Source of the DNA: Candidatus Dojkabacteria bacterium
Lineage (GTDB): Bacteria > Patescibacteriota > Dojkabacteria > JAHIVN01
DNA length: 64,000 nucleotides
Direction of reading: 5' to 3'
Assembly (NCBI GenBank): GCA_016932045.1
Contig: JAFGDO010000032.1
Location: 21,599 to 85,598, forward strand
Shown here piece by piece: positions 1-61,547 of this stretch (position 1 is its first letter; every line of letters starts with the position of its first letter). Below the pieces are notes generated by a model. The model searched no databases. It was not told where the DNA came from and saw only the letters and a program-made list of their open reading frames with translations. Both the position numbers and the translations under genes were made by a program.

Positions 1-2140
1 CCTCTTTATCAGGTCTTTTGTCTTCACGCCCTTCCTTTGAATCCTGCTCTTTTACTCTTTTCATAGAAAAACTGATCTTTCCTTCGTCATCAATCCCTAT
101 AACTTTTACTTTAACCCTTTCTCCCTTTTTTACAATCTGAGAAGGATCTGAAACAAATTTGTCAGCCATTTCGCTAATATGAACCAGACCGGATATGGCT
201 GGTGTGACATCTACAAAAACCCCATATGGTGCCAAAGTGGCAACCTCCCCCTCATAGACTTTTCCTACTTCAGCTTCCTCTACAATGCTATTTATCATCT
301 CCAGAGCCTTCTCTTTTGCCTCCATATCAACAGCTGCTACATGCACTAAACCGTCATCCTTAATATCAATTTCAACACCGGTTTTTTCAATTATATCTTT
401 AATTACCTTACCTTGTGGACCAATAACATCTGCTATCTTTTCAGGATCAATCTTTACGGTTGTAATCTTAGGTGCATATTTGGATAGTTCTTTTCTTGGT
501 TCAGGAAGAACAGCCAACATCTTTTCTAGAACAAAAAGTCTTCCGATTTTTGCCTTTTCAAGAGCTTCCTTTAAAATCCCTACCTTTATTCCATTTAATT
601 TGTTGTCCATCTGTATTGCTGTAACACCTTCCTTTGTACCTGTTACCTTGAAATCCATATCACCATAAAAATCTTCTAGATCCTGCATGTCTGTAAGCAA
701 GGCATATTTCTTCATATCGTCGCTAGTTACAAGCCCAATTGCAATCCCAGCTACTGGACTTTTTATAGGTACTCCAGCGTCCATAAGGGCAAGTGTAGCG
801 CCGCAGGTTGATGCCATAGAGCTAGATCCTTGCTGTGACAGGATTTCAGATACTACCCTAATAGTATAAGGGAATTGTTCCTCTGAAGGCATCATCGGTC
901 GTAAAGCTTTTTCAGCCAAGGCTCCGTGTCCAATCTCTCTTCTTCCCGGATAGTAGTTGTACCTGCCAGCCTCACCCAAGGAAAAGCTCTGGCCATTATA
1001 ATGATGCATAAATCTCTTTGTTTCTTCACCTTCAAAACTTTCTAGAGTTTGCTCAAGCCTTGTTGATGCAAGAGTGACAATTGAAAGAGCTTGAGTTATA
1101 CCTCGTGCAAAAAAAGCACTACCATGGGTTCTGGGAAGTATTCCTACTCTACAATCGATTTCACGAATCTCGTCAAATTCTCTACCACTAGGTCTTTTAT
1201 TCTTATCTAGCACACCTTCTCTTACCTTTCCCTTAATTATCTTCTCTACAAGACCTGCAACTTCGGCCTTTGAATACTCACCCTCTTTCTCTTGAGTAAA
1301 TTCTTCCACAATCTTGGCTATCGCTTCACTACGTCTCTCACCTGGGATATTCCCTTTGAGTTCATAAATTGTATTCTCAAAATCCTTATCATATTTACTT
1401 GTAAGCTTCTTCACCAAGTCTTCATTTACCTCTTTTTTCTCGTAAGGAACTTTTTCAATTTTGATTTCTTTTATTACCTCCTTCTGGAACTTTATAAGAT
1501 CTGGGAAATTAGAAATTGCAAAGTCAAATACCTCTGCAATTTTTTCCTCAGTAACTTCATTTGCTCCGGCATCGATCATCATAATATCCTCGCCCTTACC
1601 TGATACTACAAAATCAAGATCACTTTTTTCTAGATCACCATTCCCCGGATTAAGTAGAAACTTCCCATCCTTTAAGCCAACCCGGATCCCTGCAATCGGA
1701 CCATTAAAAGGTACTCCACTTATACACATGGCCAGGGAAGCCGCATTAATACCTAGTATAGCAGGATCGTTCTCATCGTCATAAGAAAGAACGGTGACAA
1801 CCACTTGAACTTCCCTTCTAAAATCTTCCGGGAATAAGGGACGAAGAGAACGGTCAATCATTCTTGCTTTCAGAATAGCTTCCTCTGAAGGAAATCTTTC
1901 TCTTTTTATAAAACGTGAACCCGAAATAATCCCTCCAGCATAGAATTTTTCAATAAATTCCACTCCAAGTGGAAAGTAATCTTTATCAGTACTTTCTGAA
2001 GAAACTGTAACTGTCGTCAAGACAACAGTTTCACCCATTGAAGCCACTATTGCAGCTTTAGCGCGTGGAGCAAATTCGCCAATTTCGAAAGAAATCTTTC
2101 GATCCCCGTAGTTGCATGACTTTACTATTTTGTTTTCCAT
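1..2140 (-). CDS. pnp: Polynucleotide phosphorylase (PNPase), partial. The window edge cuts the extreme C-terminus; no stop reached at position 1
   Basis: Minus-strand translation from ATG (plus 2138-2140) gives MENKIVKSCNYGDRKISFEIGEFAPRAKAAIVASMGETVVLTTV...RSLRPLFPEDFRREVQVVV, the typical PNPase RNase-PH N-terminus. The reading frame stays open to coordinate 2 and has an S1-like basic tail. Plus-strand ORFs in this region are antisense artefacts. It is absent from the ORF track because it is edge-truncated. Confidence 0.9.
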   Translation of the reverse strand, partial: MENKIVKSCNYGDRKISFEIGEFAPRAKAAIVASMGETVVLTTVTVSSESTDKDYFPLGVEFIEKFYAGGIISGSRFIKRERFPSEEAILKARMIDRSLRPLFPEDFRREVQVVVTVLSYDDENDPAILGINAASLAMCISGVPFNGPIAGIRVGLKDGKFLLNPGNGDLEKSDLDFVVSGKGEDIMMIDAGANEVTEEKIAEVFDFAISNFPDLIKFQKEVIKEIKIEKVPYEKKEVNEDLVKKLTSKYDKDFENTIYELKGNIPGERRSEAIAKIVEEFTQEKEGEYSKAEVAGLVEKIIKGKVREGVLDKNKRPSGREFDEIREIDCRVGILPRTHGSAFFARGITQALSIVTLASTRLEQTLESFEGEETKRFMHHYNGQSFSLGEAGRYNYYPGRREIGHGALAEKALRPMMPSEEQFPYTIRVVSEILSQQGSSSMASTCGATLALMDAGVPIKSPVAGIAIGLVTSDDMKKYALLTDMQDLEDFYGDMDFKVTGTKEGVTAIQMDNKLNGIKVGILKEALEKAKIGRLFVLEKMLAVLPEPRKELSKYAPKITTVKIDPEKIADVIGPQGKVIKDIIEKTGVEIDIKDDGLVHVAAVDMEAKEKALEMINSIVEEAEVGKVYEGEVATLAPYGVFVDVTPAISGLVHISEMADKFVSDPSQIVKKGERVKVKVIGIDDEGKISFSMKRVKEQDSKEGREDKRPDKE

Positions 2141-2426
2141 AAAATTTCTGAGCTTGGAAAAAGGAGAGGGTTAAGATACTGGAATTAGAATATAATTACT
2201 TCCAAAACTTTTTTTTCATATTCTGATTTCAATATCTAACCAACCGCGAAGCGGAAATTCTCCTTTTCTCAGCCCTCTTAAAAATTTAAATATATATTAA
2301 GTTAAACTCTATTATAACAGAAATGCTCACCGAATCAAACTTAACCCCTAAGGCTCGTAAACTCAATAAAACTTTATACGTCCTTGAAAATTTGAAAACT
2401 TTCAAAAAGCTGGTATTATCATCAAG

Positions 2427-2759
2427 TTGAATTTATCAATTTTAAACATGTCACAAGTTCGGTACAAAAAAATCTTTGAAGACACATGGAAATCTAACGA
2501 GAAACTTTTTCAAAAATTTTTTCTCCTTAACAGCGAGTATATCGACCCAAAGAATAGACAACATTTAGAGCAAGAGTTTCAAGAGGTGGGAAAGAAGGTA
2601 CAAAATCTTCTAAAGGAAGGAGAGAACGAACTTTGCCGCCATATGGAAAAAAGTGAACACAGAGTTTTTAGTTCAAAACTTGCAGATAAGTATTGGGATG
2701 AAGTTAGAAAGTATTTTAAGTATATTGATCTTGTTGGGGTTGTAACAAGAAGAGCCTAG
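2427..2759 (+). CDS. hypothetical small protein (110 aa)
   Basis: Intact ORF in an intergenic position between pnp and the dipeptidase gene; no recognisable motif. Confidence 0.35.
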   Translation: MNLSILNMSQVRYKKIFEDTWKSNEKLFQKFFLLNSEYIDPKNRQHLEQEFQEVGKKVQNLLKEGENELCRHMEKSEHRVFSSKLADKYWDEVRKYFKYIDLVGVVTRRA

Positions 2760-2770
2760 CTTTTTTATCG

Positions 2771-3727
2771 TTAAAGTGAATTCCGCAATACCCTCAACCA
2801 GTTATCATACATAATCTTCTTTACCTCTTCTCTTGAGCATTTCGTTAGCAGGAAATCTTTTAGTGACTTCATAATGAGAATATCTTTATGATCACCAATA
2901 AACGGATACTCCGGCAATGGATAAATATCTGAACTAAAAGCAACATAGTTATCTCCCCACTTTCCTGCAATATACTCAACATGCCGGTAGAGATCTTCAA
3001 AAGTCCCTTTCCCACCTGTATCCGCAACAATAGGAAAAAGGGATACAACTCCATCTCTTTCAACAATAATATTGATTTCATCATCTGTCAGATTGTGATT
3101 CTTATCACAAACCTTTCTCACATTACTGTGTGTTGACACAATCGTTCCCTTGAAGTATCTATCAAGGTCTTTTACAGAATTTTCACTTAAATGAGCAATA
3201 TCAAGGATCAATCGCCTCTCGTTCATTTTCTTTACCAAAAGTTTTCCCTTAACGGTTAGCCCTTCATCTTCTTCTACTTTTCTTGCGTAAGCATAATCAT
3301 TGACATAATCCCAAGTAAAACCAAATACTCTTACTCCAAGATTATAAAATTCATCAAAATCCTCAAGTGTTCTGAAACATTCAAAGCCCTCAATAGAGTA
3401 AATGAAACCGATGCATTCTTCTGATTTGTTTTCCAAATCATCTTTTGAACTTATCCTATGTAACTTATCTGTCTTTCTGAGAATTTTCTGGTAAAAATCA
3501 TAAAAACCCTTCACACCGTCATAGAAGGTAGTCTTCAAAAGGCTTTTATCAAAGTAGAGGCTAAAACCAACTATATCAATATCTGCATCTTGCAGTTTCT
3601 TAAGTGTTACGGGCGCATCACTCTTCTCGTCCAGAAAGTCTGTATATTTATAGTTAAAACAAGCATACATGTCTGGTATATCAACATGAGCATCGACAAT
3701 TTTTATCCTATCCTTTTGAGAATTCAT
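2771..3727 (-). CDS. membrane dipeptidase-like (peptidase M19 family) metallo-hydrolase
   Basis: 318 aa ORF with an HVDIP start motif, an internal DIAH...STHSN motif and amidohydrolase-fold metal-ligand spacing typical of M19 dipeptidases. Recognised by motif memory, not by search. Confidence 0.6.
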   Translation of the reverse strand: MNSQKDRIKIVDAHVDIPDMYACFNYKYTDFLDEKSDAPVTLKKLQDADIDIVGFSLYFDKSLLKTTFYDGVKGFYDFYQKILRKTDKLHRISSKDDLENKSEECIGFIYSIEGFECFRTLEDFDEFYNLGVRVFGFTWDYVNDYAYARKVEEDEGLTVKGKLLVKKMNERRLILDIAHLSENSVKDLDRYFKGTIVSTHSNVRKVCDKNHNLTDDEINIIVERDGVVSLFPIVADTGGKGTFEDLYRHVEYIAGKWGDNYVAFSSDIYPLPEYPFIGDHKDILIMKSLKDFLLTKCSREEVKKIMYDNWLRVLRNSL

Positions 3728-3827
3728 AATAGGGTATTATATATAAGTGCAAGAGTAAAAAACAAACTATTTTAATATTTAATCAAAAGAACTTTACCTT
3801 GCGATTTTTTAAAAGACATTACTAATT

Positions 3828-4643
3828 TTATTTATCTAATGCATTCTCAATAAAATCTCTTAAAAATTCCCGATATTCTTTCTGTAATTTCTCGAAATTT
3901 CCAATCTTTCTTTTTAGTATCTTATTATACTTATAGGTAAATCGCGGTTTGCCATTATTAAATTCCTTAACCGGTTGATCCAGTAATACGTTCATCATTG
4001 CCTTTGATTCCAGTTCTGTATCTTCATATATCTTCCTAATTGGAGAGTATATTTTATATGGAATATTATATGAGACTATATTATTTAAACCCTTTATCTC
4101 CGATGCAAATGGATAGAATTCTACTCTAACACCCAGTTTAATGCTATCCACCTCAAAGCCCTGATCTTCCGCCACAATCACATACAATAGTTTTTCTTTT
4201 CTTAATTCTAGACACTTAAGTACACTTAAAATTAATTCTATGGATATTCGTGCAGTATTCCCTTGTCCAATCTCATCATCCACAAATAAAATTTCTTCAA
4301 CTCTAGAAATTCTATTAAGTTGCCTTTTCAATTCCGGTATTAGATGGTCATTATCAAATTCATTTTTCTCCAATTCCTCGCTTCCAGGATAATACCTATA
4401 AATGGGGAACTTTAGAACTTGAGGAAAGGGTTTTCCCAACCTCTTATAAATAAGTTTTGTAATCTCAACCATCCCAATACCTGAATCTCCAGCTGCGATG
4501 ATTAAATCGAATTTATACTTCTTCTCATGAATAAGCCAGCAGATCTTCTCTATGTACTTCTTTAAGTGCTCTAGAGAGATCTCTCCTACCCTATTCCAAA
4601 GTTCATCTACTGAAAGATGTGAGTACTTATTATCAATATTCAT
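3828..4643 (-). CDS. phosphoribosyltransferase-like domain protein (hypothetical)
   Basis: 271 aa ORF containing ILFVDDEIGQGNTARI, which resembles the PRTase PRPP-binding loop (acidic pair followed by small residues and T). Function not assignable. Confidence 0.4.
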   Translation of the reverse strand: MNIDNKYSHLSVDELWNRVGEISLEHLKKYIEKICWLIHEKKYKFDLIIAAGDSGIGMVEITKLIYKRLGKPFPQVLKFPIYRYYPGSEELEKNEFDNDHLIPELKRQLNRISRVEEILFVDDEIGQGNTARISIELILSVLKCLELRKEKLLYVIVAEDQGFEVDSIKLGVRVEFYPFASEIKGLNNIVSYNIPYKIYSPIRKIYEDTELESKAMMNVLLDQPVKEFNNGKPRFTYKYNKILKRKIGNFEKLQKEYREFLRDFIENALDK

Positions 4644-4744
4644 AATAAGTGATTTTATTATGTTGGAGGAATAATGTCTAAAAGGATTATTTAGTACTCA
4701 TACCGAGAGAATCAAGAACAGTATTGTTGATATATCTCAGTGAA

Positions 4745-4798
4745 GGCAAGAGGACTCGTTTGTCCGCCTCGGGTGGAAACCTCGAACCAATGGCTTAA
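4745..4798 (-). other. degenerate partial duplicate of the tRNA-Lys 3' half (pseudo-tRNA fragment)
   Basis: Plus strand reads aagaggactcg...aacctcgaaccaatggcttaa. The tRNA shows gagaggactcgaacctccaaccaatggcttaaaagg about 50 bp away. It has an internal insertion, so it cannot fold as a tRNA. Confidence 0.5.
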
Positions 4799-4847
4799 TC
4801 ATAATTTAGATTAGTAAATCCTTCTTTTGTAGTGACATTTTAAGAAG

Positions 4848-4919
4848 TGAGGGCGAGAGGACTCGAACCTCCAACCAATGGCTTAAAAGGCCACTGCTCT
4901 ACCATTGAGCTACGCCCCC
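4848..4919 (-). tRNA. tRNA-Lys (anticodon UUU)
   Basis: Reverse complement reads GGGGGCGTAGCTCAATGGTAGAGCAGTGGCCTTTTAAGCCATTGGTTGGAGGTTCGAGTCCTCTCGCCCTCA. It has a 7-bp acceptor stem, GCTC/GAGC D-stem, anticodon stem GTGGC/GCCAT with loop CTTTTAA (anticodon TTT), T-arm GGAGG-TTCGAGT-CCTCT and discriminator A. No CCA is encoded. The plus-strand ORF 4847..5146 overlapping it is spurious. Confidence 0.85.
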
Positions 4920-5058
4920 ATCGTAATAAACGAATGACGAATTACGAAATAATCCAAGTATGTTTGATTTCTGCATTCGTAACTCGAAGTTTAGCTATTA
5001 TATCAAAGATCTTTGGGATTATAAATCGCAGGACTATAAAAATCAATCCTCTATACAA

Positions 5059-5442
5059 TCACTTCCTCCTCAAATTCCTTACCAACGTTATTGCAATTAT
5101 TAGGGCGAATACAGCAAGAACTGCTCCTACTGCTATTATTAGCTGAGGATTCTGCTTAAATACCGTCAGATTAACCTCTTTATTTACTAATGGTATTGTA
5201 AGCATTAAAGGCGAATCTGTGTCGTAAGTTTCAATTTTCAGGCTCTTGAGAACCAGAGAAAATGTCTCATCAACAGGCTTTCTGTCTGGATTGAGAAGGT
5301 AACTAATGGTAGAGGGAATCAAGATAAACAACCCCAGTATACAAGCAATTACAAAAAGTTGTTTGCAATTCACCTGGATAGACGGACGAAAAGAAACTTT
5401 TTTCTTGGAAGGTTTTTTATCTTTATCGGGCATGTAAATCAA
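5059..5442 (-). CDS. hypothetical membrane protein (two predicted TM segments)
   Basis: 127 aa ORF with a Lys-rich N-terminus and hydrophobic stretches (LFVIACILGLFILIP; IIAVGAVLAVFALIIAI). Confidence 0.4.
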   Translation of the reverse strand: MIYMPDKDKKPSKKKVSFRPSIQVNCKQLFVIACILGLFILIPSTISYLLNPDRKPVDETFSLVLKSLKIETYDTDSPLMLTIPLVNKEVNLTVFKQNPQLIIAVGAVLAVFALIIAITLVRNLRRK

Positions 5443-5611
5443 TAATCAATTAACAATGATCAACCTTCAATTATCCAATTATTCAAAGATACAAAGGTTC
5501 AATGATATAAAGATAGAAGGTATGAAATAACCATCCGACTATCCAGCTATCTAGCTATTTTTGTTTAGTACTTATTAAGAATAGTTTTATCTATTTCTTT
5601 CCATCTCTCCC

Positions 5612-6679
5612 TTATAGACAGTAGTCCTGATTCTTATTTATATAACATCTCTGATTGTTTGTCTGTTCTTCGAGAGTCTTCGCATAGTGTACGTTGCCTT
5701 CCTCATCATGAAGGTAATAAAAGTAATCATTTGCCTTGGGATTTAATACTGCCTTTATCGAATCCAGCCTTGGATTGCATATAGGTGTTGGAATAAGCCC
5801 AACATTTTTGTATGTATTGTAAGGAGACTCTTTCTCTTTCAACTCCTTCGTTACAACAGCCTCCCAGTCTTTGAGCTCGTAAAGCAACGTCGCATCTGCT
5901 TGCAAGAGTCTCACACCATCCATATCACCATTCAATCTTCTCTGCAATATATCCGATATCATATATCTCTCCTCGCTCGTTCGTGCCTCCCTTTCTATGA
6001 TTGATGCAAGTATTATAACCTCATAGGCACTAAGATTTTTATGAGACTCTAAATTTATTTTCTCCGACTTTATTTTATTTTCAAATGTTATAAGCAAGAA
6101 TTTAACTAGCTCTTCAGCCGTTATATCTTTTTTCACATTGTATGTATCTGGAAATAGAAAGCCTTCTATACTCTTTCCTTCTGACTTATAATCCAGTATT
6201 TCGACATCAAGATCATAATCGTCAGGATTCCGACAAATGTCCAAAAAGGTCTCCTTATCAAACTTGGTATTATCTTCTTTTAAGAAATACTCGTCCAATA
6301 TTTCTGCTATTTCATCGTATCTCAAACCTTCCTGTATAGTAATCCAAACATCATTTCCCGCTGCTCTCTGGATAAATTCTGCAACTTCGATTACCGTAAG
6401 GTTTTGAGGTATCTTAAATTTACCAGCCTGTATCTTAGGAGCAAGTTGATTAATTTTTATATAAAAATAGAATACATCAGAACTCTTTATGACACCTGCT
6501 GTTTGTAGTTTAACGGCTATATCTTTAACAGCCTCTCCCTGTTCGATCTCAACTTCTACAATACTAGAAGAATCACTTGTCTGAGTGTTTATCTGTTTGT
6601 TGTACCAAACATAGGCCCCCCCAGCAAGAATTGCAGCAATTACAATTAAAACTACTATTATTATAAATATCTTTTTCAT
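5612..6679 (-). CDS. mltG: endolytic murein transglycosylase MltG (YceG-like)
   Basis: 355 aa with an N-terminal TM segment plus motifs GFLFPDTY, ASIIEREA, LQADATLLY and PYNTY..GLIPTPICNP, all characteristic of the YceG/MltG family. Confidence 0.85.
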   Translation of the reverse strand: MKKIFIIIVVLIVIAAILAGGAYVWYNKQINTQTSDSSSIVEVEIEQGEAVKDIAVKLQTAGVIKSSDVFYFYIKINQLAPKIQAGKFKIPQNLTVIEVAEFIQRAAGNDVWITIQEGLRYDEIAEILDEYFLKEDNTKFDKETFLDICRNPDDYDLDVEILDYKSEGKSIEGFLFPDTYNVKKDITAEELVKFLLITFENKIKSEKINLESHKNLSAYEVIILASIIEREARTSEERYMISDILQRRLNGDMDGVRLLQADATLLYELKDWEAVVTKELKEKESPYNTYKNVGLIPTPICNPRLDSIKAVLNPKANDYFYYLHDEEGNVHYAKTLEEQTNNQRCYINKNQDYCL

Positions 6680-6752
6680 GCTTTTTTGTTCGTCGAATTT
6701 AAATTTTATAGGCCGATTTTATTATTAACTGAAGTCTTAGTCAATAGAACCC

Positions 6753-7214
6753 TCATTTTAGGAACGCGCTATATTGTGGCAAAAAAGATGTACTTACCCT
6801 TGCATCCTCTTTCCTTATTTCTCTAGAATCCAAATACTCCTGTAATATTATTCTAGCTGATTCACTATCAATATTTTTGGGGTTATTTCTTTTCCTCCTT
6901 TCATATTGCCTAGCCTGTACTGTTGAGAAAGCTTCGTTCCAGAACTCAACTTCTGCTCCATTTGTTGACTCAAGAGTTCTTGCAAAGTATCTTGTTTGAA
7001 TTGATTGCTGAGTTTCTTCATTTTTCGAGCCGAGAGGCAGACCAACAACCACAATATCAATATTTTGTGTTCTCACAATCCTATGTATCTTTGAGACTGC
7101 ATCTGCAAGCGATTTCACTTTTAGAGCTGAAATAGCCATAGCTATTATGCCGGTTTCATCAGATATTGCTAAACCTATTCTTTTTTCTCCATAATCTATT
7201 CCCAAATATTTCAT
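6753..7214 (-). CDS. ruvX: Holliday-junction resolvase-like nuclease RuvX/YqgF
   Basis: 153 aa with the N-terminal GIDYGEKRIGLAISD motif and IDIVVVGLP, typical of YqgF/RuvX. Confidence 0.85.
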   Translation of the reverse strand: MKYLGIDYGEKRIGLAISDETGIIAMAISALKVKSLADAVSKIHRIVRTQNIDIVVVGLPLGSKNEETQQSIQTRYFARTLESTNGAEVEFWNEAFSTVQARQYERRKRNNPKNIDSESARIILQEYLDSREIRKEDARVSTSFLPQYSAFLK

Positions 7215-7443
7215 TGATTTACAAAAAGGCTTGAATTAATAATGAAATACTCAACAAGTTAGCTAATTATAACATTATATATTTCCGTTTGTAAGTTTTT
7301 TTCTTGAGAAGCAACGTTTAATATATAAAAGCTTATATACTAGTTGCTAGTCAAAAACTAGTATATATACCCTTGTTGACTGATGTTTCTTATGCTATAT
7401 TTTATGTAATTATTATAATCTATAAAAGAAAGGAGTTTATCCT

Positions 7444-7713
7444 ATGACTGACCTTAAAGTCGAAAAAAAAGACGGCAGACTCGAGAGTTTTGATAGGAAC
7501 AAAGTAGTAAGCAGCGCCACTAAAGCTGGAGCCAGTAACGAACAGAGTGAAAGCATAGCTTCTCAAATTGAAACATGGGCCTACGAAACAGCCGTTGACA
7601 GTGTAATTAAAACAAGTAGCATTCGGGAAAAGGTACTAGAGTTACTACGTCCGATGAACCCACAAGCTGCAACCGCCTTTGAAACATACATAAAAGAAAA
7701 AAATCAGCAATAA
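7444..7713 (+). CDS. ATP-cone domain protein (stand-alone)
   Basis: 89 aa containing KKDGRLESFDRNKVV, the ATP-cone signature seen in NrdR and RNR N-termini. An upstream TTGACT...TATATT looks promoter-like. Confidence 0.55.
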   Translation: MTDLKVEKKDGRLESFDRNKVVSSATKAGASNEQSESIASQIETWAYETAVDSVIKTSSIREKVLELLRPMNPQAATAFETYIKEKNQQ

Positions 7714-7842
7714 TATATAAAAGGATATTTTGCTCTCTGATTAGATTTATATGACTTTGGAATACTGCCTAACAAAATGAAGACAGCATACATTTTCAAA
7801 GAATAATTATAGAATTGTTATGCTATATCATAAGCAAAAAAC

Positions 7843-8001
7843 ATGAAAGAATTTCTAAAGAAAAATTGGACCCTAATAATAGTACTTCTATACTTTATCG
7901 CACCCGATCTCATTCCAGGATTATTTGATGATGTTGGACTATTGGTTGTAGAAAGAATTCTCCACTCATTTTTCAGCAAAAGAACAGAACAGGAAAAATA
8001 A
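7843..8001 (+). CDS. small membrane protein, DUF1232/YkvA-like (52 aa). It is below the ORF-track length cutoff
   Basis: Hand translation gives MKEFLKKNWTLIIVLLYFIAPDLIPGLFDDVGLLVVERILHSFFSKRTEQEK. The PxDLIPxxxDDxGLL pattern matches DUF1232. The stop TAA at 7999-8001 was verified by codon counting. Confidence 0.5.
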   Translation: MKEFLKKNWTLIIVLLYFIAPDLIPGLFDDVGLLVVERILHSFFSKRTEQEK

Positions 8002-8625
8002 AACTACCCCCAACAATTTGTGATTAAATGTCCAAAGCCGTATCTACTGCTCCTTTGGTCAACATTAATATCATAAATTACTTCACCCACTAACACAGAG
8101 AAGTACTCGCCAAACATGCGGTAATCCATGCGATCCATAGGTGTCCTTCCTAGATTTATTGTCTAAATCCCTCCCGCTAGAAATTTCCATCCCAAAAACT
8201 AATGAGTATTTGAGAATCTAATCGCAGAGGAACATTACATCTATATAGTCCAAGAAAAAGAATTTATAACATAAATAAAGATCGGAATACTAATACACTC
8301 TCATTCTATCATGCCCTTCCGATAAATCCCTCAATGCTCCTAGTCCTGTTAAAATTCAGCATTGCAATTTCCATACAAACATTTAGAATATTAGTACCTA
8401 TTATGCCTTTACATCTCAAAGGGAAAAGACTCGGAAAAATGTATGTAGAACAACAATGGATTTATCCGAAGTGACTCAAAATGTTACGTATTCCGGCTAA
8501 TTGTCGCCAAACCGTAACATCCGGTTATTTAAAGTGCCTTACTAATGAATTTAGTCCGAAAAAACATACTCCTAAGTAAAATCTTAATAGCACTAATCGA
8601 CTATATCACTTTTTAGATTTGATCA

Positions 8626-15385: not shown

Positions 15386-15685
15386 TTGTTACTGCTTTAT
15401 TGCGGATGGTCAATATTTGTAATTACGCAGTCTGCTTTGGGAGGAGAAGATAAACCACCGATTATTTATACAATATGCGTGACTGTAATGCTTCTTCCCA
15501 TGATAGCTGTGGCTATCACTTACATCATAGGAGCATTGAAGGTTTACACACAAAAGAAATCCGTATGGGTACTTCAGATCGTACTTGTTGCAATCGGCAC
15601 GAGTTCTTTACTTACCTTAGTTCCTTGTATATTTTTGCTCATGAGTCTTTTGTCAGATGAGGTACAGGATTACTATAAAAAGTAA
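15386..15685 (+). CDS. hypothetical small membrane protein (99 aa)
   Basis: ORF with two to three hydrophobic helices (IFVITQSALGG...; VMLLPMIAVAITYIIGA; LVAIGTSSLLTLVPCIFLL). Weak support. Confidence 0.3.
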   Translation: MLLLYCGWSIFVITQSALGGEDKPPIIYTICVTVMLLPMIAVAITYIIGALKVYTQKKSVWVLQIVLVAIGTSSLLTLVPCIFLLMSLLSDEVQDYYKK

Positions 15686-15894
15686 CTGAATCTTTTGCTA
15701 TAGTAAAACCATAGCAGTTTCCTTTTTATAAATCTATAAAGTCTTTTCAGCATTTCTAGAGAGCTCAGAATTAAATTCCTATAAATTTAACGCTACACTC
15801 TAAATAAGGTAACAGAAATTGCTTTTTCTCCCTTTTTTGTGGTAAAAACGGATATAATTAAATATTTATTCTGAGGAATAGTAGGTTTTTTCAG

Positions 15895-16175
15895 GTCTTA
15901 AGCAAACCTTGCAGCTGAAAGAAGGCAGATGTGCAAAAAACCAAACGCGCTTCAGTGAAACACTACAGAGAACTCCCTTCGGGACAGTACTTGTAGGGAC
16001 ACAATTTATTGTGTCCACAAGGAATAATTAGTAATAATTATTCACAAATGAGTGGTACCACGAGGGTAAACCAGATCAAAGATCGGTCCACCCTAAAAAG
16101 CTCTCGTCTCATAACAATCCAGCCAAAGGCTGACAAACAATTGTTAAGAGACGAGAGTTTTTTGTTTTGGAAGGA
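15895..16175 (+). promoter_or_regulatory. putative T-box riboswitch leader of argS
   Basis: Stem-I-like region gcagctgaaagaagg...; CGC (an Arg codon) in a candidate specifier context; and agtacttgtag, which also occurs in the ileS leader. The T-box motif AAATGAGTGGTACCACGAGGG sits at about 16047-16067. The terminator hairpin gctctcgtctc (16100-16110) / gagacgagag (16148-16157) is followed by TTTTTT. The ORF-track start at 16009 lies inside this leader and is rejected. Confidence 0.6.
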
Positions 16176-16212: not shown

Positions 16213-18783
16213 ATGAAATTTAAAGTTTCACCGGAAATATTTGAAAAGTACCCGAATCTCATAGAGGCTATCGTCATTCTTAAAAACATTGATAATACTG
16301 TGGACGGCAAAGAGATAATTGAAATATTAAGGAACGAAGAAGAAAAAAAGAAGAATACATTATCAACAATTCAGCTGTCTAGCCATCCGGCTATCCAACC
16401 ATGGCGAGACGCATTCAAATCTTTCGGCTCTAAACCGAACAAATTCTCCTCATCAGTTGAAGCATTGTTAAAGAGGGTAGTTAAGGGGAACGAATTGCCA
16501 GATATAAACCCCCTTGTAAATCTCTACAACTACTGCTCTGTTAAGCACATCCTACCTTTCGGAGGCGAGGATTTCTCAGGAGTTTATGGAAATATGGAGC
16601 TCAAACATTGCGCTGGTGACGAGGAGTTTATTCCTATCATGTCAAAAGAGAACGAACCTCCAGATAAAGGTGAGGTCTCCTGGCTGGATGATCAAGGGGT
16701 AACTTGTAGAAAGTGGAACTGGAGACAGTGTGATAGAACAAAAGTTACAGAAAAAACAAAAGAAGGGTACTTCATTATTGATGGAATTCCCCCCGCCAAG
16801 AAAGAAGATATCAATGAAGCAGCTGAAGATTTCATCAAGCTGGCTAAGAAATATTTAAATGCTCGTGGAGAAATATACTGGCTGGATAGGAAAAATCCGG
16901 AGGTTGAAGTTAACATAAAAACCAAAGTAGCTGAAAGCTCTCAGCTGCCAGCTACCAACCTAAGAAAAGAAATGATAAAAACTCAAAAGATAAATAAGTC
17001 AACAAAAGATTTCTACAAAAAGAATCCGCTTGAAGATATGGTTGATGAAAGTCTAGTAAAGTACAAAGTAAGAGACCTTGTCTGGGAAGCAATAAAAAAA
17101 GCTAAGTATGGCAAGTACTTAAAGAAAGAAGATATAAAAGTCGAACATCCGCAGAATGAAGAATTCGGTGATTTTTCAACAAACGTGGCAATGGTTCTAG
17201 CGGGTAAATTAAAGAAAAAGCCAAACTTCGTTGCCGACGTGATTCAAGAACACATACCATCAAGAAACGTTATTCAGCATGTCTCGCTCAAAGAAGCTTT
17301 TATAAACTTCCATCTAAATCCAAAGTGGCTTGCAAATGAGATAAACAAAATACTTAAAGAAAAAGACACATACGGGGACTCATTGAAATCAAGAGAATTT
17401 AAGCTAATTGTTGAATTTGGACAGCCAAACACTCATAAGATGCCTCATATAGGTCACTTATTTTCATATATGTATGGAGAAAGTATAGCGAGATTAACAA
17501 AAGCAATGGGCCTTGAGATTTTTAGAGCTAACTATCAAGGAGATGTAGGTCCTCATGTTGCAAAATGTATCTGGGCTTTTATGAAGAACAAACCAGGTAT
17601 TCCAAAAACTCTAAGAGAAAAAGCAGGGCTATTACAAAAGATGTATCAGGAAGGTGCCACCGCTTATAAAGAAGATGAAAAAGCTAAAGAGGACATAGAT
17701 AGAATTAATAAAATGATTTATCTAAAGGACAAAAAGATCGATGCTATATACAAAGAGACAAGACAGTGGAGCGTAGACTTTTATGAAGAATTCGAAAAAA
17801 GCATCGGTGTACACTACGATAGATACTATTTTGAATCGGAAGTCGCAGAACTTGGGGAAAAAATCGTTAAGGACAATATCGGCAAAGTTTTCAAAGAGAG
17901 CAAAGGAGCGGTTATATTTGAAGGAAGCAAATTTGGTCTTCATGATAGGGTATTTATCACCAAAAGAGGTACGCCAACATACGAAGCAAAGGACATGGGG
18001 CTTCAAACTATAAAGTATAAGGAGTGGCCTTTTGATTATATGATGATATTTACAGCCCATGAACAAAGTGAATATTTTAAAGTGGTTATCAAAGCTCTTG
18101 AAGAGCTTAACCCAGTATTTCAAGATAGAATAAGACACTACGGTTTTGGAATGGTAAATCTAAAAAGTGGAAAAATGTCTTCAAGAACTGGCAATATTAT
18201 TACAGGAATAGGTCTTGTTGAACAAGCGATAGAAGCTGTAAAAAAATTAATCAAAGATAAAAACGATTTATCAGAAAAGGAGAAAGAAAAAATAGCTGAA
18301 AAAGTTGCTATAGCAGCAATAAAATACTCTTTCTTAAAAAATAATCCTTTTCAAGACTCAGTTTTTGATTTTGAAGAGAGCATAAACTTTGAAGGGAACT
18401 CTGGCCCATACCTTCAATATACTTATGCCAGGGCAAAATCAATTCTCAAGGAAATCGAACAATCTACAATCTACAATCTACCTTCCTCGCCGGCAGGCGG
18501 GCAATCTTCGAAAGATTTTAACACTGAAGAACTTCTAATTCTAAGAACATTATACAAGTTCCCTGAAGTCGTCTTCGAATCGGGCATGAATCTTGCCCCT
18601 AACCTACTCTGCTCCTATCTATTCGACCTAGCTCAGAAGTTCAATCTGTTTTACAAGAAACACAAAGTATTAAAAGCTAAAAACGAAGAGCGAAAAGCAA
18701 GACTCGCAATTACTGCAGCTACAGCACAGGTGATAAAGAATGGCCTTGGTTTGCTCGGGATAGAAGCACTTGAGAAAATGTAG
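16213..18783 (+). CDS. argS: arginyl-tRNA synthetase with an N-terminal B3/4-domain extension of about 290 aa
   Basis: Preferred start MKFKVSPEIF at 16213, after the T-box terminator. N-terminal region PWRDAFKSFGSKPNKFSSSVEALLKRVVKGNELPDINPLVNLYNYCSVKHILPFGGEDF...CRKWNWRQCDRTKVTEKTKEGYFIIDG matches the B3/4 domain (PheT editing-like, Pfam B3_4). The ArgS body follows, with the HIGH motif PNTHKMPHIGHL and the C-terminal DALR anticodon-binding region. One continuous ORF. Confidence 0.88.
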   Translation: MKFKVSPEIFEKYPNLIEAIVILKNIDNTVDGKEIIEILRNEEEKKKNTLSTIQLSSHPAIQPWRDAFKSFGSKPNKFSSSVEALLKRVVKGNELPDINPLVNLYNYCSVKHILPFGGEDFSGVYGNMELKHCAGDEEFIPIMSKENEPPDKGEVSWLDDQGVTCRKWNWRQCDRTKVTEKTKEGYFIIDGIPPAKKEDINEAAEDFIKLAKKYLNARGEIYWLDRKNPEVEVNIKTKVAESSQLPATNLRKEMIKTQKINKSTKDFYKKNPLEDMVDESLVKYKVRDLVWEAIKKAKYGKYLKKEDIKVEHPQNEEFGDFSTNVAMVLAGKLKKKPNFVADVIQEHIPSRNVIQHVSLKEAFINFHLNPKWLANEINKILKEKDTYGDSLKSREFKLIVEFGQPNTHKMPHIGHLFSYMYGESIARLTKAMGLEIFRANYQGDVGPHVAKCIWAFMKNKPGIPKTLREKAGLLQKMYQEGATAYKEDEKAKEDIDRINKMIYLKDKKIDAIYKETRQWSVDFYEEFEKSIGVHYDRYYFESEVAELGEKIVKDNIGKVFKESKGAVIFEGSKFGLHDRVFITKRGTPTYEAKDMGLQTIKYKEWPFDYMMIFTAHEQSEYFKVVIKALEELNPVFQDRIRHYGFGMVNLKSGKMSSRTGNIITGIGLVEQAIEAVKKLIKDKNDLSEKEKEKIAEKVAIAAIKYSFLKNNPFQDSVFDFEESINFEGNSGPYLQYTYARAKSILKEIEQSTIYNLPSSPAGGQSSKDFNTEELLILRTLYKFPEVVFESGMNLAPNLLCSYLFDLAQKFNLFYKKHKVLKAKNEERKARLAITAATAQVIKNGLGLLGIEALEKM

Positions 18784-18826: not shown

Positions 18827-19198
18827 GTGATATTTAGTCTTGAAAAAATGAGACATACATGTCACAATAGCATTAGTTACTATCTCTTTGAAGAAAAAGT
18901 TTACATTGATAACAAAGCCGAAAGAGAGCTTAGAAGGTTCAATACAGAATTAAGAGCTGAATTTAAAGCTCTCATCGATAAATTAGCAAAGGAAGGACAT
19001 CTGAAAATACCTTTTGCCAAGAAAATTGATAAAGAGCTATTTGAAATGAGAGTAAGAATCGAGGGAGCTTGGAGAGGATTTTACTCTTATATTCAAAAAG
19101 ATACAGTAATAATTTTACATTTCTTTCGTAAGAAGTCGCAAAAAACACCTAGAAAGAAAATAAATACAGCAAGAAAAAGGTTAAGATATTACAAGTAA
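18827..19198 (+). CDS. higB: HigB-like toxin (phage Gp49/DUF891 family, RelE/ParE superfamily)
   Basis: 123 aa whose C-terminus LHFFRKKSQKTPRKKINTARKRLRYY matches the DUF891/Gp49 signature (GF.KKTQKTP..EI..A..R...Y), plus an LFEMRV core. Confidence 0.65.
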   Translation: MIFSLEKMRHTCHNSISYYLFEEKVYIDNKAERELRRFNTELRAEFKALIDKLAKEGHLKIPFAKKIDKELFEMRVRIEGAWRGFYSYIQKDTVIILHFFRKKSQKTPRKKINTARKRLRYYK

Positions 19199-19202
19199 AA
19201 GA

Positions 19203-19511
19203 ATGAACTCTAAACTTAAAACAAAACTAAGAAAATACGCAATACCCTACGAGAAAGCTTTTGTCCAGGACATGAAGAAGGCGCAGTTCAGAAGACTTGT
19301 AAGAGCAAAGAAGAGGTACTTTGAAACATTATCTTCTATTAAGAAATTGCGTAAGCAAAAGGGCTTTTCACAGGAAAAGCTTGCTAAACTTGCGGGTCTT
19401 CCACGACGTACCATAGTTCGTATAGAATCGGGTCAAAAGAATACAACTATCGATACCCTCATCAGCATCGCCTCGGCTATGGAGGAGGAGTTGGTAATTA
19501 GGTTGAAATGA
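19203..19511 (+). CDS. higA: HTH XRE-family antitoxin (HigA-like)
   Basis: 102 aa with a classic HTH_XRE, LRKQKGFSQEKLAKLAGLPRRTIVRIESGQKNTTIDTLISIASAM. It begins 4 nt after the toxin stop, in toxin-first HigBA order. Confidence 0.65.
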   Translation: MNSKLKTKLRKYAIPYEKAFVQDMKKAQFRRLVRAKKRYFETLSSIKKLRKQKGFSQEKLAKLAGLPRRTIVRIESGQKNTTIDTLISIASAMEEELVIRLK

Positions 19512-59653: not shown

Positions 59654-60955
59654 CTACTTTCCTCTTGGCTTAATCACTTCCTGGCTGACCCATTTCTGTA
59701 ATACTTTAGGGATCTTTACGCTCCCATCTTCTTGCTGATAGTTCTCAAGTATTGCGATAAGAATTCTTGGTGAAGCAATCGCTGTATTATTTAAGCAATG
59801 CGCATACTTGATATCCCCCTTTTTATTTTTGTACTTAATATTCAATCTCCGCGCCTGCCAATCACCCAAGTTAGAACACGAATGCGTTTCTCCATAAGCT
59901 TTCCTGCTCGGCATCCAAGTTTCAATGTCATACATCTTGTATTTTCCAGCCCCCATGTCACCTGTACACATCTGAATTACCCTATGTGGTAACTCAAGGT
60001 CATTCAGGATCTCTTGAGAGATATCTCGAAGTTTTTCAAACCATTCGTTCGAAGTTACATAATCATTCTTACAGATAATCACCTGTTCAACCTTTGCAAA
60101 TTCGTGAATTCTGTACACACCCTTCGTATCTTTTCCATAGCTTCCGATCTCGCTTCTATAACACTGAGAAAATCCGCACAGTTTAATGGGTAATTCTTCT
60201 TCATCTAGAATCTCATCTGCATGATATCCGCAAAGTGTAACTTCGGCTGTCCCGATAAGGTTTGTACCCTCTTCTTTTTTCTCGTCCAATTCCAATTTTC
60301 CTGCAGGTAAAACCCTGTAAATATTATCTCTGTCAAAGGGAAACCAGCCTGTACCAAATAAGGTAAAATCTTTTGCAAGGGTAGGAGGGATCATTGGAGT
60401 AAAGCCATTTCCAAGCAATTTCTCCAGAGCATACCACAAGACTGCAAGATGAAGCAGCACACCTTCATTCTTCAGAAAGTATCCTCTAAATCCTGAAACC
60501 TTTACTCCTCTATCTAAATCCAGAATATCCAAAATCTTTCCAAGCTCAATGTGATCTCTTGGTTTAAATTCGAATTTAGGTAAATTCCCGACCTTTTCAA
60601 CTTCAACATTCCCACTCTCGTCTTTACCAACAGGAGTATCTTCGGAAGGAATCTGCGGAACATACCACATCAGATTTTCATACTCTTTCTTTACCTTCGA
60701 GAACTTTTCTTCAAGACCAGCTAGTAACTTTTTAATCTCTTGTCCGTTTTTAATTAGCTTCTCGTCTCGTTTCCCTTTTTTCATAACCTGAGCTATCTCA
60801 TTTCTTTTCTGTCTAAGCTCGTCAATCTCGGTCTTCAAAGTTCTTCTCTTTGTATCTAGATCCAGAAGGTAATCCAGATTCAGGTCAATGTTTTTATCTC
60901 GAATCGCATTACGAACTTTCTCTTTATTTTCACGGATGAATTTTATATCCAGCAT
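59654..60955 (-). CDS. serS: seryl-tRNA synthetase
   Basis: 433 aa. N-terminal coiled-coil MLDIKFIRENKEKVRNAIRDKNIDLN...; class II core with FSQCYRSE (motif 2 region) and GETHSCSN...R (motif 3 region). Confidence 0.93.
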   Translation of the reverse strand: MLDIKFIRENKEKVRNAIRDKNIDLNLDYLLDLDTKRRTLKTEIDELRQKRNEIAQVMKKGKRDEKLIKNGQEIKKLLAGLEEKFSKVKKEYENLMWYVPQIPSEDTPVGKDESGNVEVEKVGNLPKFEFKPRDHIELGKILDILDLDRGVKVSGFRGYFLKNEGVLLHLAVLWYALEKLLGNGFTPMIPPTLAKDFTLFGTGWFPFDRDNIYRVLPAGKLELDEKKEEGTNLIGTAEVTLCGYHADEILDEEELPIKLCGFSQCYRSEIGSYGKDTKGVYRIHEFAKVEQVIICKNDYVTSNEWFEKLRDISQEILNDLELPHRVIQMCTGDMGAGKYKMYDIETWMPSRKAYGETHSCSNLGDWQARRLNIKYKNKKGDIKYAHCLNNTAIASPRILIAILENYQQEDGSVKIPKVLQKWVSQEVIKPRGK

Positions 60956-61159: not shown

Positions 61160-61450
61160 AACACAAAAACCCTTGTCAAAATACCGATATCCGATATTTA
61201 AACAAGGGTTCTTCGATTTACTCAGAACGGTGCCACCTTTATCTTGATTGTTTAATCGCTCTTCCCTTCGACTCCTCCCGCCTGTCTGCCGACTAGGCTG
61301 GCTAAGCGGGATTCGCTCAGGGCACAGCAGCTATCTCGGGCTTACCCGTTGACTTTCATCAATTACACTTAGTAGTAAATATTACCAAGCTTGAGTGGAT
61401 TCAAGAGAACTTGACTACCTAATCACAGTAAAAAGGCTTTCTGAAAGTGA
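61160..61450 (-). promoter_or_regulatory. putative T-box riboswitch leader of serS; shares the GC-rich core with the ileS leader
   Basis: On the minus strand: the conserved core GGGTAAGCCCG...CTGCTGTGCCCTG-AGCGAATCCCGCTTAGCCAGCCTAGTCGGCAGACAGGCGGGAGGAGTCGAAGGGAAGAGCGATTAA; then AAAGGTGGCACCG (plus 61228-61243), a T-box-like motif; then terminator hairpin aacccttgt...acaaggg + TTTTT (plus 61165-61210). It lies about 190 nt upstream of the serS start. Confidence 0.45.
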
Positions 61451-61547
61451 AGTTCAATTTACTAGCTCATTTAAGAATATTTAATTATAATGCTATTATA
61501 ACAAACCTGTAATTAAATAAACAATTTAATTAAACTATTGTTTCCTT

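Follow-up and report, generated by a model that had tools for sequence, protein, structure and literature searches.

Why would an arginyl-tRNA synthetase (ArgRS) carry an additional domain in front of its catalytic machinery, and what would this domain do there? The question is raised by an argS gene located in a 64,000-nt stretch of DNA from Candidatus Dojkabacteria bacterium (contig JAFGDO010000032.1, positions 21,599 to 85,598 of the forward strand; the whole stretch is referred to as the window), in which a B3/B4-fold domain and an ArgRS are encoded as one polypeptide. Our results indicate that the N-terminal domain is a predicted aminoacyl-tRNA deacylase of the CtdA type and that the fusion looks like the first natural ArgRS with an editing domain of its own. 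CtdA was reported in 2023 as a free-standing enzyme hydrolyzing canavanyl-tRNA(Arg) (PMC10018355), and structural papers on the protein appeared in 2025 (PMC12268091, PMC12449066).

Identity, spread and conservation of the N-terminal module

A sequence-only reading of this locus had described an argS gene fused to an N-terminal B3/4 domain behind a T-box leader. The Pfam check proposed there was performed, and all four models (B3_4, Arg_tRNA_synt_N, tRNA-synt_1d, and DALR_1) matched the product of a single uninterrupted ORF, in agreement with that description. The HIGH motif, placed by the same reading only about 410 residues into the protein, was found to begin at residue 412, and the assignment of the first ~240 residues to the B3/4 family was borne out by a B3_4 match at residues 64-196 (E 8e-22, 78 bits vs. 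a cut-off of 29). A PWRDAF motif is present at residue 63. The fusion protein also passes the NCBIfam argS equivalog model TIGR00456, with 399 bits vs. a cut-off of 261.65. An identical protein is held by NCBI under the name "arginine--tRNA ligase [Candidatus Dojkabacteria bacterium]", encoded on a 202-kb contig. The reading frame is open from a TTG at 16009 to the stop codon ending at 18783. This TTG was rejected as a start, with positions 16009-16163 corresponding to the T-box and terminator. Instead, the ATG at 16213 is taken as the true start, since homologues align from their own residue 1 to its Met and the T-box and terminator lie upstream of it. Coordinates of all these features are given in Table 1.

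To identify the N-terminal module, the first 286 residues were compared with all PDB sequences (phmmer), and only two proteins matched significantly: 9f7e, "CtdA canavanyl tRNA deacylase" from Pseudomonas canavaninivorans (E 1e-34), and 9mkl, CtdA of Salmonella enterica (E 1e-30). An AlphaFold2 (AF2) model of the fusion protein, calculated with 109 homologues, had a mean predicted local distance difference test score (pLDDT) of 94, rising to ~97 across residues 1-235. In a Foldseek search of the PDB, the N-terminal third of the model superposed on CtdA (9f7e_A and 9mkl) over 227-232 columns of 226-231 residues, with a root-mean-square deviation of 2.6-2.8 and a template modeling score (TM) of 0.83-0.87, while the C-terminal two thirds matched ArgRS structures with a target TM of up to 0.87. 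No PheRS chain was present among the best 50 PDB matches of the model. Between the two parts, pLDDT is low at residues 242-270 and falls below 50 at 242-250, with one helix predicted at 247-267.

The residues relevant for CtdA catalysis have been defined by mutagenesis as Y104, N105, E118, and E191 (PMC12268091), and mutagenesis has likewise shown the aminoacyl pocket to be formed by N105, G116, E118, C166, Q173, and I189 (PMC12449066). Alignment maps the first set to Y105, N106, E119, and D190 of the window protein, and the remaining pocket positions G116, C166, Q173, and I189 to G117, C165, Q172, and I188. C166 is strictly conserved in the characterized CtdA-1 clade, tunes specificity and separates CtdA-1 from CtdA-2 (PMC12449066). 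Since the catalytic and pocket residues all map, the N-terminal module is predicted from sequence and model to be a full-length CtdA-1-type deacylase with an intact active site, and not a PheRS-like domain. The sequence-only reading had regarded the domain as PheT-editing-like and its stand-alone form as a protein of unknown function. Neither view held: the best sequence and fold matches are to CtdA and not to PheRS, and CtdA is a canavanyl-tRNA(Arg) deacylase (PMC10018355, PMC12268091, PMC12449066).

The comparison with orthologs suggested by the same reading was also carried out, and the fusion proved to be conserved. Among the best 120 homologues, 50 proteins of 798-1008 amino acids share the same four-domain architecture, with full-length identities to the window protein of 35-66% (BLASTP) and up to 69% in a separate alignment. 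They derive from independent assemblies deposited in NCBI, JGI, ENA, and Logan. Where a host is named, it belongs to the Dojkabacteria or is one Woesebacteria and one "Patescibacteria group" genome, and the fused genes sit inside long contigs with varied neighborhoods. Mean identity of the 49 other fusions to the window protein was highest for DALR (56%), followed by the CtdA module (50%), the catalytic domain (48%), and Add1 (36%), and dropped to 19% for the linker. The CtdA module is thus under as much constraint as the essential synthetase core, whereas the tether can vary freely, and both the CtdA and ArgRS parts are under strong purifying selection. For two fusions (P0014 and P0018) the identities to the window protein diverge by domain: those of the CtdA module (64-69%) and DALR (67-73%) are well above that of the catalytic domain, which reaches only 30-38%. 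This suggests domain-level mosaicism or recombination.

Within the module, the active-site residues Y, N, G, and E do not vary among the 50 fused homologues. At CtdA position 166 the fusions have C (29/50), T (20/50) or, in one protein, Y; Q and E alternate at position 173, I and V at 189, and D and E at 191. Glu at position 173 is also found in the active Clostridium perfringens enzyme. A HMMER search of the CtdA module against 1.84 billion cluster representatives (clustered at 50% identity) detected 3028 relatives at E <= 1e-3, and CtdA-ArgS fusions account for 35 of the best 150 of these. This fraction comes from the exhaustive HMMER search; a word-index search with the N-terminal domain alone returned only short proteins, none of them fused. 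Two further architectures were noted among the relatives: P0201 (1124 amino acids) has two tandem CtdA modules before ArgS, and in P0312 (424 amino acids) a GNAT acetyltransferase is fused to CtdA.

Possible function and alternative explanations

As CtdA is a canavanyl-tRNA(Arg) deacylase, its fusion to ArgRS is mechanistically sensible. In the CtdA papers ArgRS figures only as an enzyme failing to reject canavanine, and CtdA as the first editing activity described for mischarged tRNA(Arg) (PMC10018355, PMC12449066); most ArgRS enzymes accept canavanine (PMC10018355, PMC12268091, PMC12449066). We consider that the N-terminal domain is probably an active module that edits mischarged tRNA(Arg). 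Among the proposals of the sequence-only reading was a trans-editing add-on to ArgS, which is now backed by the CtdA identity of the domain and its conserved catalytic residues. In the proposed mechanism, the ArgRS core would charge tRNA(Arg), at times with canavanine or another arginine look-alike, and the tethered CtdA module would capture the aminoacylated CCA end and hydrolyze the ester bond, either by post-transfer editing in cis or by tethered trans-editing. The flexible linker of ~50 residues would keep the module at a high local concentration, replacing the tRNA recognition that free CtdA must supply itself, and cognate Arg-tRNA(Arg) would be spared by the selectivity of the pocket. 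Free CtdA barely acts on Arg-tRNA(Arg), and ArgRS and EF-Tu protect the cognate product (PMC12449066); the same logic would limit futile cycling in the fusion. Uncharged tRNA(Arg), including that released by editing, would in turn raise expression through the Arg-specific T-box attenuator described below. Because editing regenerates uncharged tRNA(Arg), the T-box inducer, expression of the editing synthetase should increase when an analogue is present. We infer the activity of the module, its substrate and the delivery of the CCA end.

Canavanine is the only proven substrate of the CtdA family, and as the natural substrate of the tethered module it is a possible candidate that we rate somewhat below an even chance. 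Several observations weigh against the editing proposal. Canavanine is a product of legumes, with no obvious source for CPR (candidate phyla radiation) bacteria of groundwater and sediment. The activity of the fused proteins is a prediction from their sequences. One catalytic residue, E191 of CtdA, is replaced in the window protein by Asp (D190), a change that is conservative and common to many stand-alone relatives. The presence of Thr in 20 and Tyr in one of the 50 fusions at specificity position C166 means that the lineages may not all have the same specificity. How the domains are arranged relative to each other is uncertain in the AF2 model (predicted TM 0.74, disordered linker). Finally, the module is dispensable, having recently been lost in close relatives: the unfused P0015 is 86% identical to the fused P0004 from the distal linker to the C-terminus, an identity that points to a very recent deletion of the module in P0015.

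The alternative that survives best is that the module is an active deacylase with a natural substrate other than canavanine, for example homoarginine, ornithine, citrulline-like compounds or microbial antimetabolites, and that CtdA-like proteins provide editing in general to the synthetases of long basic amino acids. We regard this as a serious possibility, though one to which we would give a good deal less than an even chance. In its favor, genuine LysRS enzymes of both class I and class II occur with a closely related CtdA-like domain attached at either end. Such proteins make up 7 of the best 150 representatives (E ~1e-41 to 1e-52) and fall into four architectures, with the CtdA domain N-terminal to class II LysRS (P0230, P0257, P0267), C-terminal to class II LysRS (P0241, P0280), N-terminal to class I LysRS (P0209) or C-terminal to class I LysRS (P0232). 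All six full-length LysRS fusions scanned exceeded the lysS equivalog cut-offs (the 390-residue P0257 was not among them), and the P0241 gene lies within a 28.5-kb contig. The LysRS fusions include the locus L016 3001-5193. Their pocket pattern is Y-N-G-(G/A)-(E/D/Q)-C-E-(V/Y)-E. The same reading is favored by the C/T/Y variation at specificity position 166 among the ArgRS fusions and by a ctdA-argS pair lying within an arginine biosynthesis cluster, argH-argG-argF (L014). Activity on other amino acids has also been raised for CtdA in organisms not exposed to canavanine (PMC12449066). On the other hand, all CtdA-1 pocket residues (N, G, E, C, Q, I) of the enzymes active on canavanyl-tRNA(Arg) are present in the window protein, and the family is not known to have any other substrate.

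The recurrent recruitment to both ArgRS and LysRS suggests that the substrate range of the family is wider than canavanine. It is tempting to propose, as an idea we would rate just short of evenly balanced, that CtdA-like domains constitute a modular, repeatedly recruited post-transfer editing module of ArgRS (N-terminal, in many CPR lineages, sometimes in tandem) and of both LysRS classes (at either end). If so, both ArgRS and LysRS would have cis-editing domains, undescribed in the literature searched, and the substrates would extend beyond plant canavanine, e.g., to microbial or endogenous Arg and Lys analogues. A search for literature combining "B4 domain" with lysyl-tRNA synthetase found no paper.

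A non-hydrolytic role, in which the module would merely provide ArgRS with extra tRNA binding or oligomerization, seems to us quite improbable. In many cases a domain appended to a synthetase does no more than bind tRNA, CtdA of S. enterica forms a dimer, and in the 972-residue fusion P0013 the linker between CtdA and ArgS contains an additional tRNA_bind domain (PF01588; 26.2 bits, slightly short of the cut-off). Yet, the residues whose mutation inactivates CtdA are kept in 50/50 fusions, and the module matches the catalytic core in conservation, which a purely structural role would not demand. Even less credible, and in our view highly improbable, is attachment to ArgRS of a PheRS-type B3/4 editing domain with Tyr-tRNA(Phe) specificity. 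The Pfam B3_4 model that matches the module was built largely on PheRS beta; however, the closest relatives by sequence and by structure are CtdA proteins with PheRS missing from the Foldseek top 50, the domain agrees with CtdA at every pocket position mapped (as aligned to CtdA), and CtdA is published as being unable to replace PheRS editing. A sequencing or assembly read-through of adjacent genes is a negligible prospect: ctdA and argS are indeed separate, with overlapping stop and start codons, in some distant relatives, but the 50 distinct fused ORFs (35-69% identity) in independent assemblies from four data sources exclude it, the fusions have a dedicated linker of 40-100 residues that split versions lack, and the AF2 model is confident over both parts.

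Origin of the fusion, gene neighborhood and T-box leader

The distribution of fused, split and unfused forms provides some insight into the history of the gene. Three arrangements of CtdA and ArgRS can be distinguished: unlinked genes (the published cases), translationally coupled neighbors, and one polypeptide. In L013 and L014 a free-standing ctdA gene lies directly upstream of argS, with the stop and start codons overlapping as ATGA. The L014 locus (1215-7681) reads argH-argG-argF-ctdA-argS on one strand, and in L013 (5001-9190) the ctdA-argS pair is followed by a gene for a class II synthetase of the Asp/Lys/Asn type. These split loci are on 657-kb and 211-kb contigs, and the first gene is also found on an 841-kb contig. 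Fusion and neighborhood linkage of CtdA and ArgRS both point to a shared function. Given relatives in which separate ctdA and argS genes overlap by ATGA, the fusion likely arose by loss of the stop codon between adjacent genes. Loss of a stop codon had been raised by the sequence-only reading as an alternative; as an artifact it does not withstand the 50 independent fusions, while as an evolutionary event it is the probable origin.

Losses of the module can also be recognized. In Dojkabacteria the ileS-argS arrangement to which the gene belongs is conserved, HAD-family and transglutaminase-core genes lie further downstream, and syntenic orthologues have the CtdA module in L006 and are devoid of it in L001 and L003. 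No separate B3_4 gene adjoins the unfused argS of L001 or L003. Trees were built by quick neighbor-joining without support values and allow only for coarse statements: in the ArgRS-core tree the unfused P0015, P0016, and P0023 nest inside the fused Dojkabacteria clade, and the CtdA-module tree has one large fusion-only clade and a second clade in which fusions and free-standing proteins are interleaved. The window gene is most likely the housekeeping ArgRS of a Dojkabacteria (Patescibacteria/CPR) genome, judging from the ileS-argS synteny common to unfused orthologues, passage of the argS equivalog model, and intact HIGH and MSSR motifs; the view of argS copy number spans 64 kb of this genome.

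Directly downstream of argS, on the same strand, are a Gp49-like gene (18827-19198; PF05973, HigB-type toxin) and an HTH_3/XRE antitoxin-like gene (19203-19511), which together look like a toxin-antitoxin pair. In L004 and L005 MazE/PIN pairs occupy the same position after argS. A 99-codon candidate ORF with a TTG start and a strongly hydrophobic product (15386-15685, plus strand) lies between ileS and the T-box leader.

As the sequence-only reading had also proposed, a T-box leader precedes the gene, and its specifier CGC, T-box sequence, antiterminator, and terminator were all found. No T-box was found in the window by Rfam search at the gathering threshold. A permissive search of 1.2 kb with RF00230 gave 34.1 bits (E 1.3e-5) vs. 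the gathering score of 93; this low score is probably caused by ~28 extra nucleotides in the antiterminator loop. The terminator hairpin (16094-16164) folds with -35.7 kcal/mol (z -6.7), none of 200 shuffled sequences folding as well, and is followed by a U-run. The 5' strand of the terminator and the antiterminator 3' strand overlap, and the two helices are mutually exclusive. The orthologous leader of L006, the closest relative, whose argS is also fused, scores 82.6 bits at the same place and aligns with the window leader. Both L006 and L004 have the specifier context GAA-CGC-G as well as the T-box sequence motif. From its nucleotide sequence we judge the leader to be a real T-box with Arg-specific anatomy.

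The T-box does not accompany the fusion throughout. More distant fusions have only 8-56 nt upstream, with no T-box, and none was found in the closer relatives L010 and L011; the riboswitch thus marks a sub-lineage and not the fusion. Several other T-box-like elements were observed. In the window, a second T-box-like leader (61201-61483, minus strand; RF00230, 42 bits, below the gathering score) lies upstream of serS (59654-60955, minus strand), so that more than one synthetase gene of this Dojkabacteria genome seems to be under T-box control. In relatives, T-box-like matches occur upstream of ileS in L001 and upstream of a NUDIX gene preceding ileS in L003. In L004, from a related Dojkabacteria genome, an Arg T-box with specifier CGC (2676-2921) is located directly upstream of two tRNA-Arg genes (3005-3080 and 3157-3231, anticodons tct and tcg), followed by an AstE/AspA-like gene, a gene of unknown function for 494 amino acids, and the fused ctdA-argS (6001-8622). 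T-boxes do not usually precede tRNA genes.

Table 1. Coordinates of the CtdA-ArgRS fusion gene, its domains and motifs, and its leader in the window
Feature	Position	Strand	Basis
CtdA-ArgRS fusion protein CDS, 856 amino acids + stop	16213..18783	+	ORF, Pfam, equivalog model
Predicted CtdA-type aminoacyl-tRNA deacylase module, residues 1-235, B3/B4 fold + CtdA-specific helices	16213..16917	+	PDB sequence matches, AF2, Foldseek
Variable linker, residues 236-285, partly disordered	16918..17067	+	AF2 pLDDT, low identity
ArgRS N-terminal additional domain Add1 (Arg_tRNA_synt_N), residues 286-368	17068..17316	+	Pfam PF03485, E 7.7e-17
Class I catalytic (Rossmann) domain, residues 377-720	17341..18372	+	Pfam PF00750 tRNA-synt_1d, E 1.5e-39; Foldseek
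DALR anticodon-binding domain, residues 734-856	18412..18780	+	Pfam PF05746 DALR_1, E 2.4e-32
HIGH, residues 412-415	17446-17457	+	Read from sequence
KMSKS-equivalent MSSR, residues 655-658	18175-18186	+	Read from sequence
T-box leader: Stem I with GA/K-turn motif, specifier region, Stem III, T-box sequence	15859..16093	+	Rfam RF00230
GA motif AGUA	15880-15883	+	Stem I of T-box leader
Specifier codon CGC (Arg), context AAA-CGC-G	15946..15948 (G at 15949)	+	Rfam alignment to specifier loop
Conserved T-box sequence AAAUGAGUGGUACCACGAG	16046..16064	+	Read directly from sequence
Antiterminator: AUGAG-(UGGUACC bulge)-ACGAG pairs with CUCGU-CUCAU	3' strand 16103-16112	+	Read from sequence
Intrinsic terminator: long hairpin, then UUUUUUGUUUU	16094..16168	+	RNA fold

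Relation to known editing systems

Both parts of the protein are known, and fused proteins are already public under the plain annotation arginine--tRNA ligase. Neither "fusion" nor "fused" occurs as a word in the three CtdA papers (PMC10018355, PMC12268091, PMC12449066), and the phylogenetic survey of CtdA lists Actinobacteria, Firmicutes, Bacteroidetes, and Proteobacteria, with no mention of CPR (PMC12449066). A full-text literature search found no description of a CtdA-ArgRS fusion; many subscription papers were outside this search, so novelty is not proven, and the fusion appears to be undescribed within the literature searched. We believe that it is of real interest to the synthetase-fidelity field. 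It extends the CtdA family to CPR bacteria with no evident exposure to legume canavanine, and, together with the gene-neighbor linkage, independently supports the assignment of CtdA to tRNA(Arg). It also offers a ready-made system for studying the discrimination between Arg and its analogues by a tethered deacylase and the handover of the CCA end, while the parallel LysRS fusions suggest a wider substrate range of the family than is now thought.

In terms of regulation, the leader resembles T-box riboswitches acting by transcription attenuation (RF00230) in its Stem I GA motif, Arg specifier followed by a purine, T-box sequence, UGGU bulge, and competing helices. It differs from them in scoring below the gathering threshold, in the ~28-nt enlargement of the antiterminator loop, and in its occurrence in Patescibacteria and not in Firmicutes. 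The synthetase part shares with canonical ArgRS (Escherichia coli 5yym/5b63 and Thermus thermophilus 1iq0) the Add1, Rossmann catalytic and DALR domains and the HIGH and MSxR motifs, whereas the window protein has ~285 extra N-terminal residues, i.e., the deacylase and linker. Add1 of ArgRS binds the D-loop of the tRNA.

The N-terminal module has the same fold as CtdA (CtdA-1; 9f7e, 9mkl), including the CtdA-specific helices, is ~30% identical over the whole of CtdA with the pocket residues kept, and its partner enzyme implies the same tRNA species. There are, however, three differences. All described CtdA proteins are free-standing and single-domain, whereas the window module is fused in frame to ArgRS; described genes are often near canavanine catabolism genes or behind guanidine riboswitches, whereas the window gene is behind a T-box; and the window module occurs in CPR bacteria, absent from the published surveys.

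Cis-editing domains with free-standing homologues are represented by the pairs AlaRS/AlaX, ProRS INS/YbaK-ProXp, ThrRS N2/ThrRS-ed, and PheRS B3/B4. As in pairs of the AlaRS/AlaX type, one hydrolytic fold would here serve in two settings, free as a trans-editing factor and built into the synthetase that makes the error. In contrast to these pairs, the only known cis relative of CtdA was PheRS B3/B4, which serves a different amino acid, and the relation between the two has been called "unexpected" (PMC12268091). The authors of the CtdA studies remarked that CtdA, unlike other trans-editing factors, is without a counterpart domain on its own synthetase and has one only on PheRS. A conserved natural CtdA-ArgRS fusion would supply this missing cis counterpart on the matching synthetase.

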